From NCBI GenBank assembly GCA_963790045.1, contig CAWBMS010000008.1:133126-197125 (forward strand): 64,000 nt of DNA. Reading direction: 5' to 3'. Under the pieces are notes generated by a model. The model was not told the DNA's origin, did no database searches, and saw only the letters and a program-made list of their open reading frames with translations. Positions 24,028 through 30,062 of the stretch are shown here, one piece after another (within the stretch, counting starts at the first letter, position 1; each line of letters starts with the position of its first letter). This DNA is from Ignavibacteriota bacterium (lineage in GTDB: Bacteria; Bacteroidota; Ignavibacteria; UBA10030). The translations under genes were made by a program, and so were the position numbers.

Positions 24028-24257
24028 GTGACCGTCACCCACTCCGTTTAATCTAAGCTGGTGACGGTCACATGCTCTGTTCTCAATTCGTGACCGTCAC
24101 CTACTCCGTCTAAGCCAAGCTGGTGACAGTCACATGCTCTGTTCTCGATTCGTGACATTCACCTACTCCGTTTAAGCCAAGCTGGTGACGACCACACCCC
24201 CGGCTTAAATTGTGACCGTCACTCGCGCTGTTTTAGCTTGGTAAGTGATGGTCACAT
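24028..24257. repeat. REP palindrome array (GTGACCGTCAC / GTGACGGTCAC alternating, about 4 units)
   Basis: Perfect 11-nt palindromic cores alternate in orientation at spacings of about 30 nt. Confidence 0.8.
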
Positions 24258-24267
24258 AATCCTTTTG

Positions 24268-24843
24268 TTACGAAAAAATATATTTCTCTATTTTGTATTT
24301 ATCCTCCGCCTGATACAATTCAACAAATTGTTGATACGTATTATTTTGAGAGAACTGTTCCAATACAATTTCCGGATGGATGAATTGTATCGGTATATCT
24401 CCGTAATATTCTTTGCAACTGCTAAATTGCCAATGCTGTGGCTGGGAAACAAGTTTCGCCCGAACAGGATTCAGATGGATATACCGCGAAAGATGAAGAA
24501 GATACTCGTTCTCTTCAATCTGTCGTAATTTATATTTTCCATCGAACAAATGCCCCGTCCGCTGCTGTTCCAAATTAACGGCCTTCACATATCCGTTACA
24601 AAGTTTTGCAATAAATTGCGACAACCCGTTTGCGTCGAGTTGTTGAAGAATGAAATGATAATGATTGGGCATAAGACAGTAGGCGATCATTTTGACAGCA
24701 GCTGGAGCGAGTGCATTTTGCATGCGTTCGAGGAACATTTGATATTGGTAGGGATGGAAAAATATAGAAGAATGATTGTTACCACGATTATACACATGGA
24801 AGTAAGAATCAACAGAAGCAAGATATTTTGTTTTGATGGACAT
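24268..24843 (-). CDS. REP-associated tyrosine transposase (RAYT, IS200-like Y1/HUH)
   Basis: It has the HUH motif CLMPNHYHFIL and a conserved Tyr region, and is flanked on both sides by GTGACCGTCAC REP arrays. Confidence 0.8.
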   Translation of the reverse strand: MSIKTKYLASVDSYFHVYNRGNNHSSIFFHPYQYQMFLERMQNALAPAAVKMIAYCLMPNHYHFILQQLDANGLSQFIAKLCNGYVKAVNLEQQRTGHLFDGKYKLRQIEENEYLLHLSRYIHLNPVRAKLVSQPQHWQFSSCKEYYGDIPIQFIHPEIVLEQFSQNNTYQQFVELYQAEDKYKIEKYIFS

Positions 24844-24870
24844 CGACTAAATCTCCTCACCTGCTCATCT

Positions 24871-25180
24871 GTGACCGTCACCTACTCTGTTCAAGCTTAG
24901 CTGGTGACGGTCACATGCTCTGTTCTCAATTCGTGACATTCACCCACTCCGTTTAATCTAAGCTGGTGACGGTCACATGCTCTGTTCTCAATTCGTGACC
25001 GTCACCCACTCCGTTTAAGCCAAGCTGGTGACAGTCACATGCTCTGTTCTCGATTCGTGACCGTCACCTACTCTGTTCAAGCTTTGCCGGTGACGGTCAC
25101 ACTCCACCGGCTTAGCTCGTGACCGTCACTTGCTCTATTTCAACTTGGTAAGTGACGGTCACATGATCCGGTCACATAAC
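24871..25180. repeat. REP palindrome array, same family as 24028-24257 (about 5 units)
   Basis: It has the same GTGAC(C/G)GTCAC cores. Confidence 0.8.
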
Positions 25181-25182
25181 AT

Positions 25183-25911
25183 CTATTTTTTTGTCGTATC
25201 TGTCGATGGAGATGTAGATGAGGATGTATTGCCCTTGTCGTCCGTCTTTTTGGATTTATGCGGCGGGGCGGTGTAGCGCGTTTTTCTTGCTGTTTCTAAT
25301 TTGGCAAGAAGATCGGGCTTGCCTTCAAACGCCAGAGTTGCGGCATTCTGGAAAGCATCGGCAAGCGTAATGGTTGCTTCGATGGAGGCATCGAACGCTT
25401 CAGTGGCTTGCTTCGCATCCGTTTTGCATTCCTCCTGCACTTTGTTAGCGGCGGTAAGCGCAACGCTATCGGTTTGCAGCGCCGCAATATCCGCAGGCAG
25501 CACGCCCTGTTTGGCAAGCCGCTCCTGATACGTCGGGAATCCCTTGCCGTAATCCGACGCCCAGCCGATCAGCACGGGCGAAGATCCCTTATGGTCTTCG
25601 CCCACATGGAAGACTTTTCCTTCCGGACTACTTTTGCCGAACTCCTTCTTCACCGCATTTTTAGTCTTTTTGATGCGGGATGCAACGGGTGTGCGCGCTG
25701 CTTCTTCATTCCGTGTAAGGTTCTTCAATTTTTCGTGGATTACTCCGGCAGCCGACCGCTTCACCTCCATATCTGCTTTTGCCGCCGTGTACTCGGCAAA
25801 CCGGCTTTCGGGAAAACGCTCCGTGAACAGAGCTTTGTTGTCGGTATAAAGAGCTTCTTTCAGATCGTACTCTTCTGCAAGCCCTTCGGAATAAACTGTT
25901 TGTGCTGCCAT
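25183..25911 (-). CDS. hypothetical protein, compositionally GC-rich, embedded between REP arrays
   Basis: The 242-aa ORF has a GGAGGT RBS. Its C-terminus is Ala/Lys/Glu-rich with an S/T/K-rich tail. I recognise no family. Confidence 0.5.
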   Translation of the reverse strand: MAAQTVYSEGLAEEYDLKEALYTDNKALFTERFPESRFAEYTAAKADMEVKRSAAGVIHEKLKNLTRNEEAARTPVASRIKKTKNAVKKEFGKSSPEGKVFHVGEDHKGSSPVLIGWASDYGKGFPTYQERLAKQGVLPADIAALQTDSVALTAANKVQEECKTDAKQATEAFDASIEATITLADAFQNAATLAFEGKPDLLAKLETARKTRYTAPPHKSKKTDDKGNTSSSTSPSTDTTKK

Positions 25912-26043
25912 ACCATACCTCCATAAAATTGATGTGTAAGATTATGAAGGGTCCCCATTTTATTTAAGACGATTCGTGGGGGCCCCGCTTGGTTATGTGA
26001 ATCGTTTGTTTATTTATGCGTGTGTGTTTCCTTTATTTTTTAT

Positions 26044-26115
26044 TTATGCATGTGACCGTCACCTACTCGTGCATGTGACCGTCACTCGCTTTGCGTTGAC
26101 AGAGTTAGTGACGGT
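26044..26115. repeat. REP palindromes (GTGACCGTCAC family), isolated pair
   Basis: The sequence reads gtgaccgtcacctactcgtgcatgtgaccgtcactcgc...agtgacggtcac. Confidence 0.7.
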
Positions 26116-26135
26116 CACAAACTTTGTCCGTTTTC

Positions 26136-26195
26136 TGTAAGGGTTGAAAATTTTCAACCCTTACAAAGTATTGTTCGGGAGATCATCTCCCGAAC
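26136..26195. terminator. two strong stem-loops at the distal end of the CRISPR array (possible array terminator)
   Basis: One has a 13-bp stem (tgtaagggttgaa aatt ttcaacccttaca) and the other a 10-bp stem (gttcgggaga tca tctcccgaac). Neither is followed by a clean U-tract. Confidence 0.35.
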
Positions 26196-26234
26196 AGCGA
26201 GGGCAATTACATCGAATTAAAAGTTACAACGTCT

Positions 26235-26790
26235 GTTTCAACTTCCTTTCAAATGGAATAACTGTCAGCGGCAGAGGCAACAAAAGTTGATTGCGAAACG
26301 TTTCAACTTCCTTTCAAATGGAATAACTGTCAGCATGACTTGCAATGATAACATCGTTTTCTTTGTTTCAACTTCCTTTCAAATGGAATAACTGTCAGCC
26401 ATAAATAATCATCGCTTTGATATTGTACTGTTTCAACTTCCTTTCAAATGGAATAACTGTCAGCACAATTCCGGAGCGGGAAGAACCTATAGCGGTTTCA
26501 ACTTCCTTTCAAATGGAATAACTGTCAGCAGAGGGCAAAGAGAAGAATTGCGATTGCTAGTTTCAACTTCCTTTCAAATGGAATAACTGTCAGCCGCTCA
26601 AGATGTTAAGCCGCTACTTAATCGGTTTCAACTTCCTTTCAAATGGAATAACTGTCAGCATGCTCGAAGTTCTTCTTCGTTCGCGCCTGTGTTTCAACTT
26701 CCTTTCAAATGGAATAACTGTCAGCCGCATAGGTCGTGAGCAACGTTGCTTGTAAGTTTCAACTTCCTTTCAAATGGAATAACTGTCAGC
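26235..26790. CRISPR. CRISPR array with 9 identical 35-nt repeats (GTTTCAACTTCCTTTCAAATGGAATAACTGTCAGC) and 8 unique spacers of 30-31 nt
   Basis: Repeats start at 26235, 26300, 26365, 26430, 26495, 26560, 26625, 26691 and 26756, and all are identical. The spacers are unique and non-repetitive. The minus-strand reading of the repeat ends in GTTGAAAC. Confidence 0.95.
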
Positions 26791-26908
26791 TTAGTACCAT
26801 GCAAATCCCAGTTCTTCATAGGGTTAGAGAATAAATAGTATAGAAATAAACGGGAAGAACGCAGTTTATTGAAGGGGAGATACCAAAAAATCCATTGTAC
26901 TTGGAATT

Positions 26909-26931
26909 GGTGAGTGGGCAAGCCCCTCACC
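26909..26931. ncRNA. stem-loop within the 250-bp cas12-like/array spacer region (candidate tracrRNA or scaffold element)
   Basis: The hairpin ggtgag tgggcaagccc ctcacc lies in the non-coding region between the gene stop (27040) and the array (26790). Confidence 0.25.
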
Positions 26932-27039
26932 TTCCGGATGATGTCGGCGAACGCCGCCATTCTTGCTATATCGGCAGCAAGATGAAACCACCCGTACCGT
27001 CTTCCGTTTTCACAGAAGAAAATGATTCTCTCTTAATTT

Positions 27040-28485
27040 TCAAAGAACAGTGCCGCCAGTATACTTGTGATACCATTCACATTCATCTTTGCGGGTTACC
27101 ACTTTAGTACTTTTGGCTATATTGCATGCGGCATTATAATCCGCATTGACGATTGTATCAAAATTTTTGCACGAGGGATTCTTACATTTAAATTCCGATT
27201 GACTGATACGTTGTTCTTCTGCTTCACTGCCACATTCGGTACATCGCTGGCTGGTATGATACGGATCAATACAGACCACTTCCATTCCTTTGCGGGCAGC
27301 TTTATCTTTGATCATCGTTTGTAATTCAAAGTACGACCAATTACGTAGAACAAAATCTCCCTGCAATGATTTTCCGTTTTCGTCTTTACCGTATCCTTCA
27401 AGAAGTTCTAATTTAATAACACCTGCGCGATACTTTTCTGCGAACTCGATAATGCGTCGCGAAACAGTGTGGTTATAAGTGCGAACAAAATGACGCTCTT
27501 TGTCCTTTAACGCTTCCATAGCTTTCAATTTCTTCCCGCGGCCTTTTCCGCCTTGCGTATTGCGCAAAGCAATTTGTAAATGCTTTCTGCGTTGCTGCAT
27601 TTGTGTACGCACACGTAAGAATTCGTTGCGGCTGCCAATTGCCAGACGGGCAAGCCCATCTGATAATGCACAATATGCCGGAACATTCAAGCCGAGATCG
27701 ACGCCAACCGAACGCGCTGTATCTAATACCAGCTTTTCTTCTTCAAATTTTATTGCGAGCAGTAAGAATATTTTTCTATCCTGCACCTGCATCTGGGAAT
27801 CACACATTTGGTAATCACCGGCAAGCACACGATCCATAATAATTTCGTTGCCACTACGGTCCCGTCCGAACCGTAATTCAAAATTCAACCCTTCTAACCA
27901 ATGCAACAGAACTTTTCCATCCTTCTTTTCAAACCGGAGACTTTCTTTCATAAACGGAATCGGCATGCCTTTTCGGAAACTACTAATTGCTCGTTGACCG
28001 CGGCGAACATCGAGGAGTTCCTTTTTAAACTTATCTACCACCGCATTATTTAATGCAGCTTTAATATAGGAAGGCATATCAGGGAATTCATCGGCAAGCA
28101 TTTGGTAGGTGGAGTTCTTTTCCCCTGTAACATAAAATGCTTCTGCTTCCGTGCGTGCCTCTAATGTTAAAGTGGCTTTTGCTTTGGTAAGTTTCTCTAA
28201 TTTTTTCTGTAATTTTTCTGCCGCGGCTTCGTCGGCTTCTTTCTTTTTTGCTTCTAAAGTTTTTTTATAATCTTCTTTAATTTCCTGCGCCTTTTCGGAA
28301 AGTTTTTCATCTGTCCATACGATTCGTTGTTTGAATGTGTCGTTAAAGTATTGATTGCTAACAATGAGATTTGCTGCACGGAAAACATCGTTGCTTAGTT
28401 GCCGTAAATACCGCCACGCCAAATTACGTTTTTCAGCATCTTGTTCATCTATCCATAATTCTATTTTACGGGTTATGATCGGCAT
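27040..28485 (-). CDS. TnpB/Cas12-like RuvC nuclease (481 aa), a candidate compact type V CRISPR effector
   Basis: RuvC-I is GVDLGLNVPAYCALSDG, RuvC-II is IKLELLEGYGKDENG and RuvC-III is NADYNAACNIAKS. A zinc finger CTECGS...FKCKNPSCKNF lies between RuvC-II and RuvC-III, the same arrangement as in Cas12f/TnpB. A Lys/Glu-rich coiled-coil insertion of about 60 aa follows the N-terminal WED-like region. It has the same orientation as the array and lies 250 bp upstream of it. Confidence 0.8.
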   Translation of the reverse strand: MPIITRKIELWIDEQDAEKRNLAWRYLRQLSNDVFRAANLIVSNQYFNDTFKQRIVWTDEKLSEKAQEIKEDYKKTLEAKKKEADEAAAEKLQKKLEKLTKAKATLTLEARTEAEAFYVTGEKNSTYQMLADEFPDMPSYIKAALNNAVVDKFKKELLDVRRGQRAISSFRKGMPIPFMKESLRFEKKDGKVLLHWLEGLNFELRFGRDRSGNEIIMDRVLAGDYQMCDSQMQVQDRKIFLLLAIKFEEEKLVLDTARSVGVDLGLNVPAYCALSDGLARLAIGSRNEFLRVRTQMQQRRKHLQIALRNTQGGKGRGKKLKAMEALKDKERHFVRTYNHTVSRRIIEFAEKYRAGVIKLELLEGYGKDENGKSLQGDFVLRNWSYFELQTMIKDKAARKGMEVVCIDPYHTSQRCTECGSEAEEQRISQSEFKCKNPSCKNFDTIVNADYNAACNIAKSTKVVTRKDECEWYHKYTGGTVL

Positions 28486-28526
28486 ACTGCATGCTTCCGT
28501 GTTAAATTATTTCTTTGTCTCTTCAT

Positions 28527-28608
28527 CTCACTCCGCCGACTTCCCCAAACGCACTCCTTGGAGAAGCACATTATATCCAACCGTTTTAAACTTGCTGTAA
28601 AGTTACAT
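28527..28608. repeat. copy A of an 80-bp conserved element, located 40-120 bp upstream of the cas12-like start
   Basis: It is near-identical to 29667-29747, which lies upstream of the RAYT gene. It contains gttttaaacttg, resembling the 5' end of the CRISPR repeat (gtttcaacttcc), and on the minus strand a TATAAT-like box (ggatataatg). Confidence 0.7.
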
Positions 28609-28914
28609 GAACGCCTTATTAAAAGCAAATAAATTACTTCTGCTTCGATCATAATATTGTATTTCCCAATAATCCATTATCCTCATGCCTGCGCTCGGTA
28701 TCGGTTGCCCAACATTGAATGTCCTCACCATGAATTTAATTCATTGCTCCATGTTGTGGGCACGTTCCGCCAAATAGACTGCGGATAAACGCAACGTGCC
28801 CCTGCCGATTTTAATCAATACAACAATATTCTGAAAATAATTTTCCATCGTAGGGACGTGATTCATCACGTCCATTTTATTTATTATATCCCTTTCTTGC
28901 ATCACGTCCTCATA

Positions 28915-29010
28915 ACGAATTTATGAATCAAATTAATGGATTTGATGAATCAAATTAATGGATTTGATAAATCAAATTAATGGATTTGATGAATCAAATC
29001 CCTACGATGA
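28915..29010. repeat. tandem array of a 22-bp unit containing the perfect palindrome GGATTTGATGAATCAAATCC (about 4 copies)
   Basis: The unit aatggatttgatgaatcaaatt is repeated. It overlaps the 3' end of the RAYT ORF, and a further copy occurs at about 29340-29380 inside the ORF. Confidence 0.7.
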
Positions 29011-29643
29011 TATATCTGCGTTGAACAATCGTTGTACACTGTCGGGATGTTCATGATCCATTGCCCACATCACAGGGTTTCCGGCAATATATTTACGAAT
29101 GTTGTTCAATTCTTTATCGCTGCGAATAACATGTTCGTAGAAACGGGATTGCCAACGGAAATTATCATATCCCGCATCGTGAATAAATTTCGTCGTCCGC
29201 GCTTTATAATGGCGAACAATTTTACCTAAGGTCAATTTTGGATTTTTCATCAATCCCCATTCATTCGTAGGGACGTGATTTATCACGTCCTGATTTATAT
29301 CCGCATGATTAACCACGTCCGAATGGTTCATCGCATCCCCGTTTAGGATTTGATGAATCAAATCCCTACGATGGTCATATTCCAACAATACCAATATTCC
29401 ATGAACGTGATTGGGCATTATGATATATTCATCCAATTGCACATTTGCAAAATGTTTTGTTATATCGTTCCAACAACGCTCTGCAATTATTCCAATCGGC
29501 AACAAATGGATTGCTTCGTCATTTATTTCACCAAACATATTTTCATGATTATGCGTGCAAATCGTAATAAAATATCCGCCCGGCATCGAGTAGTCGTACT
29601 CTTTTAATCGAATGGATTTTCTCTGACAACGTGTTGCAATCAT
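29002..29643 (-). CDS. REP-associated tyrosine transposase (RAYT, IS200-like Y1/HUH), third family
   Basis: It has the HUH motif IIMPNHVHGILVL and the conserved RWQSRFYEHVIR (Y-motif) region. It is flanked by GGGACGTGAT..ATCACGTCCC palindromes at about 28850-28880 and 29270-29300. Confidence 0.8.
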   Translation of the reverse strand: MIATRCQRKSIRLKEYDYSMPGGYFITICTHNHENMFGEINDEAIHLLPIGIIAERCWNDITKHFANVQLDEYIIMPNHVHGILVLLEYDHRRDLIHQILNGDAMNHSDVVNHADINQDVINHVPTNEWGLMKNPKLTLGKIVRHYKARTTKFIHDAGYDNFRWQSRFYEHVIRSDKELNNIRKYIAGNPVMWAMDHEHPDSVQRLFNADISS

Positions 29644-29666
29644 CGTATGTATCTCTTTGTTTTTAT

Positions 29667-29747
29667 TCCACCGACTTCCCCAAACGCACTCCTTGGAGAA
29701 GCACTTTGTATCTACCTAACCGTTTTAAACTTGGTTTAAAGTTACAT
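29667..29747. repeat. copy B of the 80-bp conserved element, upstream of the RAYT gene
   Basis: It is about 90% identical to copy A (28527-28608). Confidence 0.7.
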
Positions 29748-29989
29748 TATCAAATATTAAAACGCAAGGGGAAGAAGAGAAAAGAGGCAATTGCTATGAA
29801 TTTTTTAGGGAATCAGGTAGAAACATAACCAAAATAGGTTTGAGTAAACAGTTTCAGAAGGTTCTCTTCACGACGATTAAACCGATATTCAACGTCTTTC
29901 GTTGTGCGCAAAATCCCTGATGCAAGCCCACAACGTGAAGAACTCTATAAAAAAGAAAAGGCAGTCACAAAAGTTGTGACTGCCGAGAG

Positions 29990-30062
<73 letters not shown>

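Follow-up and report, generated by a model that had tools for sequence, protein, structure and literature searches.

Does a miniature nuclease gene lying next to a CRISPR array make up a self-contained RNA-guided system with it, or is it a transposon-type gene that merely sits near an array? The question is raised by a locus in a 64,000-nt stretch of DNA from an Ignavibacteriota bacterium (GenBank assembly GCA_963790045.1, contig CAWBMS010000008.1, positions 133,126 to 197,125 of the forward strand; henceforth the window, in whose coordinates all features are given). We consider it very probable that this chromosomal locus represents a type V-F CRISPR-Cas system that stands alone, belongs to the Cas12f1 group (V-U3 lineage) and would act by the standard Cas12f mechanism. 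It displays every testable defining feature of type V-F Cas12f1 (V-U3 lineage). Its three putative working parts are all encoded on the minus strand, namely the cas12f gene, a predicted gene for a trans-activating CRISPR RNA (tracrRNA) directly downstream of it, and a nine-repeat array; the unit extends over ~26136-28485 plus an upstream region. The Pfam families listed for the window include DprA, peptidyl-tRNA hydrolase, PRPP synthetase and OTCase, and tRNAs are also present: these housekeeping genes and tRNAs indicate that the window is chromosomal. A first-pass annotation of this DNA had interpreted the locus as a minimal type V one, lacking adaptation genes and with a miniature effector that was either Cas12f/Cas12n-like or a recently domesticated TnpB, and this proposal is supported by the assignment of the protein to Cas12f with PADLOC, PDB and Foldseek and by the conservation of its association with an array. 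The observations behind it likewise hold: the 481-aa gene encodes the full catalytic architecture; nine 35-nt repeats with eight unique spacers of 30-31 nt lie ~250 bp downstream in the same orientation (249 nt, minus strand); and no cas1, cas2 or cas4 is found among the listed PADLOC and Pfam families of 63 window open reading frames (ORFs).

The cas12f gene (27040-28485, minus strand) is an ATG-initiated ORF for a type V-F effector with RuvC and zinc-finger TNB domains; at 481 aa, with a C-terminal tri-split RuvC, it falls within the size range of such effectors (about 400-700 aa). Decisive for its identity is the defence-specific PADLOC library, whose Cas12f profile PDLC01699 matches it across positions 2-397 of 399 (370 bits, E 3.6e-111) and whose Cas12u3 profile matches at 357 bits (E 4e-107). 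Pfam recovers Cas12f1-like_TNB (PF07282) at residues 385-456 with 58.4 bits against a cut-off of 26.3, together with a sub-threshold match to OrfB_IS605, and the sole NCBIfam model passed is guided_TnpB (‘RNA-guided endonuclease TnpB family’; 165 bits, cut-off 100 bits). Assignment to Cas12f2 (Cas14b) was rejected: the model NF049972 CRISPR_Cas12f2 of NCBIfam reaches 118.5 bits against a cut-off of 450, and the C-terminal half alone aligns. The RuvC residues D263 (in VGVDLG), E360 (in IKLELLEG) and D449 (in VNADYN) are intact and fall in invariant or near-invariant columns of an alignment with 28 homologues; the zinc finger, of the form CxxC...CxxxxC, is equally intact (C415/C418...C434/C439). 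An exact-protein look-up found nothing on record.

Comparisons with experimentally determined structures point the same way. In a phmmer search of the PDB the best match is Al3Cas12f (9NZO/9NZR; E 1.3e-93, residues 4-467 aligned), followed by CnCas12f1 (8HR5; 2e-70), RhCas12f, dCas12f, AsCas12f, OsCas12f, SpCas12f1 and Un1Cas12f, the first 14 sequence matches being all Cas12f. An AlphaFold2 model built on the 28 homologues has a mean predicted local distance difference test score (pLDDT) of 86.7 and features very long N-terminal helices at 17-58, 60-82 and 86-118. Foldseek places 9NZR, 8HR5 and 9NZO first for this model (that is, Al3Cas12f and CnCas12f1; E 3e-32); the first 23 matches are again all Cas12f, and the ISDra2-type TnpB 8H1J is recovered at E 3e-11. 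A neighbour-joining tree groups the window protein with three environmental Bacteroidota proteins (P0002, P0003 and P0005), beside but outside the Alistipes clade that holds the Al3Cas12f-like proteins. The profile and structure checks that the first-pass annotation had suggested return Cas12f, with Al3Cas12f and CnCas12f1 as the nearest structures of the model. Taken together, sequence and model firmly support the identification of the protein as a Cas12f of the V-F1/V-U3 lineage and not an ordinary IS605 TnpB.

The array (26235-26790, minus strand) consists of nine copies of the 35-nt repeat GCTGACAGTTATTCCATTTGAAAGGAAGTTGAAAC (minus strand), all nine 100% identical, the terminal copy included, at a period of 65/66 nt; all eight spacers differ from one another, seven being 30 nt long and one 31 nt. 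Three features of the sequence indicate that it shares the orientation of cas12f: the 3' end of the repeat, GGAAGTTGAAAC, resembles the repeat ends of other Cas12f systems; the anti-repeat of the tracrRNA lies on the same strand; and in the array of the locus with a 72%-identical protein (L001) the degenerate repeat is distal to the gene. Repeats of related loci are 35-37 nt long with a common ending, ...TTTGAAAGG...CCAAC or ...GAAAC, and by this shared ending the window repeat can be placed in the same repeat family as those of the Alistipes, Prevotella and Bacteroides Cas12f arrays. Between the U-tract of the tracrRNA and the first repeat lies an A+T-rich leader (26791-26884, minus strand), read from the sequence and with an equivalent spacer region in L001 and L003; it presumably holds the array promoter. 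A scan for sigma-70-type promoters gave counts no higher than in shuffles, Bacteroidota promoters being outside the model of that scan. Directly after the last repeat stand two stem-loops (26136-26196, minus strand) with two terminator-like matches, one of 11 pairs on the minus strand at 26196-26172 and the other at 26136-26165; from their position they are likely to end the precursor CRISPR RNA (pre-crRNA) transcript, and the number of such matches is not above shuffle expectation.

The gap of 249 nt between the cas12f stop codon and the first repeat (27039-26791) holds the predicted tracrRNA gene (27003-26885, minus strand), whose length of ~119 nt has approximate ends and which was delineated by conservation, folding and covariation. 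The region begins 37 nt past the stop codon and comprises, in order, a P1 stem (CGGGUG/CAUCCG), a loop opening GUUUCA, two variable hairpins, a GGUGAG...CUCACC hairpin, an anti-repeat tail (AAUUCC..AAUGGA) and a U6 tract. A block of this long form is found downstream of cas12f in five loci, i.e. the window, L001, L003, L084 and L006: it begins GACGG.ACGGGTGGTTTCAT and finishes ...CATCCGAAGGGTGAG...CTCAC(C/T)AATTC..AGTA.AATGG followed by a T-run. A short form, which has the same block without the two variable hairpins, is present in L004, L005 and L007. The minimum free energy fold of the window tracrRNA is at -43.9 kcal/mol (z-score -3.0), and unconstrained folds yield the same architecture in four of the five long forms, L006 adopting it only with P1 enforced. 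Across the long forms the two inserted hairpins have wholly different sequences per locus with the hairpin shape kept. As RNAalifold on a MAFFT alignment mis-paired these variable hairpins through offsets of 1-2 columns, per-sequence constrained folds and a hand-specified core structure were used instead. With these, pairing in P1 and in the third hairpin's lower stem reaches 100% over the eight sequences, as against 33-47% when the partner strand is slid, and one compensatory pair, U:A to C:G, is seen in L005 and L007.

The RNA also matches the repeat at two places. The loop motif GUUUCA is complementary to UGAAAC in the window, L001, L003 and L006, and its counterpart in L004, GUUGCA, to UGCAAC. 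The anti-repeat tail matches the repeat as AAUGGA with UCCAUU in the window, AAUGGAG with CUCCGUU in L001 and AAACGA with UCGUUU in L006. The same topology is known from the experimentally validated single-guide RNA (sgRNA) of Al3Cas12f, in which GGCGC-GUUGGA-GCGCC goes with a repeat ending in UCCAAC, and UUCACUUGA, the 3' anti-repeat, matches UCAAGUGAA (PMC13186708 supplement). It is this topology, in a conserved and covarying RNA, by which 27003-26885 is called a tracrRNA gene. In Rfam, neither the tracrRNA nor the repeat, nor the duplicated element upstream of cas12f described below, has a family (at the gathering threshold or at E up to 1).

The coupling of gene and array is not a peculiarity of this genome. 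A protein search retrieved 1074 homologues at E 1e-10 or better, the closest being a protein from a Bacteroidota metagenome-assembled genome (72%) and then other environmental Bacteroidota and Ignavibacteria proteins. When species-representative genomes were scanned, 80 related loci emerged, from Alistipes, Rikenellaceae, Prevotella, Bacteroides, Bacillus, Clostridia and others; in the majority of these a simple periodic-repeat detector found an array ~100-300 nt downstream of the gene, so that the linkage is kept across phyla. L001 has the same gene, a ~250-nt gap and a nine-repeat array, and the arrays of the relatives range from 3 to 22 repeats with unrelated spacers. Of the window locus itself just one further copy is on record, on a 2-kb Logan contig (L083; 99.9% identical), where the array has been collapsed to one repeat by assembly; no second array with the window repeat was found in metagenome_contigs or viral_contigs with two-copy degenerate and 24-nt exact patterns.

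Two departures were seen among the relatives. In one clade of three proteins (P0033, P0048 and P0057; 45-49% identical to the window protein) the RuvC-I aspartate is replaced by asparagine (VGVNLG), HTSQ has become LISQ, RISQ or QISQ, and NADYNAALNIA has become FSDYNAALNNA; judging from these changes, they are probably naturally nuclease-dead Cas12f proteins nested in an otherwise active family. Separately, four loci from Deltaproteobacteria, Desulforhopalus, Phycisphaerae and Anaerolineales (L008, L011, L013 and L048; 38-41% identical) adjoin arrays of 28-29-nt repeats quite unlike the window type, GT...CCCACGCGTG.GGGGATGGGTC, which we take to resemble type I repeats. These four might share arrays with another CRISPR type.

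Concerning adaptation, 63 ORFs that do not overlap and measure at least 70 aa were drawn from across the 64 kb and compared with PADLOC and Pfam: no Cas1, Cas2 or Cas4 is among the listed families (25 of 31 from PADLOC and 25 of 103 from Pfam), and the PADLOC families beyond the listed 25 were all weaker than E 3e-6. The remaining PADLOC matches in the window are without a cas link (e.g. the ShosA model, best E 1e-69). Among 141 ORFs of 13 related loci, for which the 25 most frequent families were listed, no adaptation family occurs in at least two loci, a result compatible with a single Cas1, Cas2 or Cas4 in one of them. That V-U3 systems have no adaptation module is normal according to the literature (PMC7229846) and hence is no surprise here; it is also the trait dividing V-U3-derived loci from Cas14a-type V-F1 loci, and it holds for the families listed from the 64-kb window. 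A nuclease gene, a putative tracrRNA region and an array are reported to suffice for protospacer adjacent motif (PAM)-dependent cleavage of double-stranded DNA (dsDNA) and, in some of these systems, for plasmid interference (PMC7229846). New spacers would presumably be rare arrivals, or be supplied by adaptation proteins whose genes lie elsewhere.

Taking Al3Cas12f, CnCas12f1 and AsCas12f as analogues, we propose that the parts would act together as follows. Transcription of the array would start in the leader, and the tracrRNA would pair with the repeat at two sites: its anti-repeat tail with the middle of the repeat, and the P1 loop GUUUCA with the last bases of the repeat, UGAAAC. The resulting duplex would be processed into a mature guide, and a homodimer of Cas12f would bind one such tracrRNA:crRNA pair. 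The MG119/Al3Cas12f family, for comparison, is dimeric and uses T-rich PAMs (PMC13186708). The complex would then recognize a PAM on the 5' side, which in the window system is most likely T-rich, and open an R-loop over ~20 nt of the spacer, whereupon the single RuvC site would cut both DNA strands and destroy the invading phage or plasmid DNA. What the analysis shows is to which family the protein belongs, that its catalytic residues are intact, that the array is there and that the predicted tracrRNA is conserved and covaries; that the parts are expressed, the guide processed, the protein dimeric and dsDNA cut, as well as the PAM and where new spacers come from, is what we infer.

Several observations weigh against this account and have to be set beside it. 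No protospacer was found for any spacer in the collections searched. With blastn (word 11, E up to 10) the whole array matched INPHARED phages and PLSDB plasmids at chance level only (best E 0.6), and in IMG/VR there was no exact match to the 22-nt PAM-proximal seed of spacers 1, 2, 3, 4, 5, 7 and 8 (seven of the eight), so that the spacer search for protospacers and PAM put forward in the first-pass annotation returned no protospacer from these three collections. Since no protospacer was found, the defence role is one that we infer. Nor was a source of spacer acquisition identified. Further, the window protein is only 39% identical to the nearest tested enzyme, and several dimer and REC residues are changed in it (R49 to L, Y62 to Q; alignments read by eye).

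A rival reading is that nuclease and guides function but the array, for want of an adaptation module, is frozen, gaining no spacers and slowly decaying as a remnant directed at fixed, old targets. The case for such a remnant would draw on the want of any cas1, cas2 or cas4 found in the 64 kb or recurring in the 13 related loci, and on the lack of spacer matches in the collections searched; yet all nine repeats are identical up to the terminal one and all eight spacers are different, which suggests a live array though no adaptation gene is in view, and the 3 to 22 repeats and unrelated spacers of the relatives argue for turnover somewhere in the lineage. We regard a frozen array as unlikely on balance. 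If the array is live, it could conceivably be kept current by some means other than linked Cas1-Cas2: in the boldest version its spacers would be supplied by the HUH/Y1 (RAYT-like) transposases on its flanks or by some further route without Cas1, and in a tamer version a CRISPR system that is unrelated to it and located at another place in the genome would load it in trans. Relatives without neighbouring Y1 genes count against spacers supplied by the RAYT-like proteins, and we give this whole idea a very small chance. A regulatory use, in which the guides direct Cas12f to host genes as in the dead Cas12f clusters and the dCas12f-sigmaE systems of Bacteroidetes, would have a published parallel (PMC13472631) and the nuclease-dead clade of P0033, P0048 and P0057 within the same family to recommend it. 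The window protein, however, retains D263, E360, D449 and its full C-terminus, no sigma-factor gene is adjacent, and the spacers have no other match in the 64-kb window (first 24 nt compared, 5 mismatches allowed); such a use is accordingly rated as quite improbable.

There remains the alternative posed at the outset, i.e. an IS200/IS605-type TnpB that is merely near an array, with its Y1 neighbours being TnpA and the downstream RNA an omega-RNA. Names and neighbours could suggest this: the NCBIfam family that the protein passes is called ‘RNA-guided endonuclease TnpB’, homologues are publicly annotated as ‘transposase’, and two Y1_Tnp-type ORFs lie within 3 kb of cas12f. Against this, both Y1 ORFs are RAYT-like by their sub-threshold best match and have REP palindromes of their own, and Y1_Tnp does not recur beside the gene in the 13 related loci. 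Instead of overlapping the ORF and finishing at a transposon end, the downstream RNA has its start 37 nt past the stop codon and contains an anti-repeat to the array; the gene-array linkage is conserved across phyla; and the Cas12f profiles far outscore the TnpB-type matches. We find this alternative barely credible, and the reading of the locus as a stand-alone type V-F system of the V-U3 lineage is retained.

The region upstream of cas12f (28486-28631, minus strand) holds an element of ~97 nt (28532-28628), 47-143 nt ahead of the gene start, that is duplicated at 29667-29767, 24-124 nt upstream of the start of a RAYT-like gene. The 46-nt core of this direct repeat is 93% identical between the two copies, the only ones in the window, and can form a possible hairpin, CUUCUCC-N13-GGGGAAG, with AAGGAG in the loop; no copy was found in the other loci. 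The element could be a duplicated promoter or 5' untranslated region, or else a trace of the insertion of the RAYT gene. L001 has an unrelated 85-nt duplication at the equivalent position (L001 9193-9277 and 9840-9924).

Both Y1 ORFs have as their best NCBIfam match, below threshold, the REP-associated tyrosine transposase (RAYT) family, and each has its own REP palindromes. The first (24268-24843, minus strand; 191 aa) is surrounded by 17 copies of the palindrome GTGACNGTCAC, of which 0.02 would be expected by chance, all within the 2-kb stretch 24028-26118; the last three copies (26052-26118) come directly after the array terminator hairpins. The second (29002-29643, minus strand; 213 aa) shares 30% identity over 71 aa with the first. 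Its stop codon is directly followed by three tandem copies of GGATTTGATNAATCAAAT, and GGACGTGAT.ATCACGTCC is found nearby at 28843-28873; a further copy of each (GGATTTGATNAATCAAAT at 29346-29365, GGACGTGAT.ATCACGTCC at 29260-29290) lies in frame inside the ORF and splits its Y1 domain match. It looks from the sequence as if this gene has been invaded by its own REP elements. The span of 26130-29750 that the first-pass annotation had given to the CRISPR-Cas locus does contain the array and the effector gene, but is too wide upstream, where it takes in this unrelated RAYT-like ORF. An association of RAYT or TnpA with cas12f as an IS605-like unit was considered and rejected: the upstream ORFs of L001 are without a significant Pfam match and hence are no Y1 transposases, and in the 13-locus scan Y1_Tnp was not a family recurring in at least two loci.

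Other features of the surroundings are as follows. Between the array and the first RAYT cluster lies a 242-aa ORF (25183-25911, minus strand) that matches the NCBIfam ‘PQLLE family protein’ model at 37.9 bits against an 80-bit cut-off and has no Pfam domain; its local GC content is 51%, compared with ~42% in the surroundings. A tRNA-Met gene (29989-30062, minus strand) stands directly upstream of the block formed by the second RAYT-like gene and cas12f, and base composition gives no clear island boundary. Other tandem repeats occur at 425-643 and 1601-1743, with a 70-nt unit present 3.2 times and containing a palindrome, and with 21/42-nt units.

Biologically, little is gained from yet another Cas12f locus of the V-U3 type, as the family already counts >1000 database homologues and several cryo-EM structures. 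How V-F arrays lacking adaptation genes gain spacers is a question that applies here too, and this locus makes testing it no easier. Its value is a practical one, in that it provides a compact ortholog (481 aa, with a predicted guide scaffold of ~140 nt) that shares 39% identity with Al3Cas12f, itself among the most active miniature editors, and that comes from an under-sampled subclade of environmental Bacteroidota with two extra hairpins in its tracrRNA. The predicted tracrRNA, its scheme of pairing with the repeat and the covarying relatives together make direct sgRNA design possible, with the repeat part taken from UCCAUUUGAAAGGAAGUUGAAAC. What is gained beyond the first-pass annotation is the conserved tracrRNA in the gap, the placing of the repeat in a family and the recognition that the absence of an adaptation module is normal for V-U3.

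Set against known systems, the window locus shares with the nuclease-dead Cas12f proteins, known from the dCas12f-sigmaE systems of Bacteroidetes and from CRISPR-associated dead Cas12f clusters (Hoffmann et al., PMC13472631), the Cas12f branch (158 bits to the dCas12f 9N9C) and a Bacteroidota host. dCas12f is, however, C-terminally truncated or mutated in RuvC and lies beside sigmaE, whereas the window protein has kept both its full length and its active site, and a sigma-factor domain is found neither in the 25 (of 103) Pfam families listed for the window nor in the individually scanned ORFs beside cas12f; a dCas12f identity was rejected on these grounds. With the TnpB of IS200/IS605 elements (ISDra2 TnpB, 8H1J) it has in common its ancestry, the RuvC and zinc-finger core and the presumed RNA-guided cutting of DNA, and its protein passes the guided_TnpB model of NCBIfam. 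It differs in having neither transposon ends nor a cognate TnpA, in a guide that would come from a CRISPR array and a tracrRNA, and in its weaker structural match to TnpB (E 3e-11 versus 3e-32 to Cas12f).

Closer still are the V-U3/Cas12f1 systems of Clostridia and Bacilli (CnCas12f1, 8HR5; AsCas12f, 7WJU/8J12; SpCas12f1, 9I8Y), which also combine a stand-alone miniature effector with a tracrRNA region and an array, without cas1, cas2 or cas4 (Karvelis et al. 2020, PMC7229846). They have the same tri-split RuvC and zinc finger, but the similarity is lower (CnCas12f1 241 bits, AsCas12f ~150 bits), the host phylum is another one, and so are the repeat and tracrRNA sequences. The nearest known counterpart is Al3Cas12f of the Cas12f-MG119 family from Alistipes sp. 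(PDB 9NZO, 9NZR; Guan et al., Nat Struct Mol Biol 2026, PMC13186708). Close relatives of the window Cas12f have been purified, solved by cryo-EM and used in genome editing (PMC13186708). Besides the divergence in BLASTP identity (39%) and in the dimer and REC residues described above, the window system differs from it in that its protein belongs to a separate neighbouring subclade of the neighbour-joining tree and not with the Alistipes proteins, in a repeat that ends GTTGAAAC in place of the ATATCCAAC of Al3Cas12f, and in the two additional hairpins inside the P1 loop of its tracrRNA. The likenesses are these: Al3Cas12f is the best match in both sequence (E 1e-93) and structure (Foldseek 3e-32); the two proteins are of one size class (481 aa in the window, 488 aa in Al3Cas12f) with long N-terminal REC helices; the loci follow the layout of gene, tracrRNA and array; and the guides share a topology in which the loop of a stem is complementary to the final 6 nt of the repeat and a long conserved hairpin is followed by a 3' anti-repeat.

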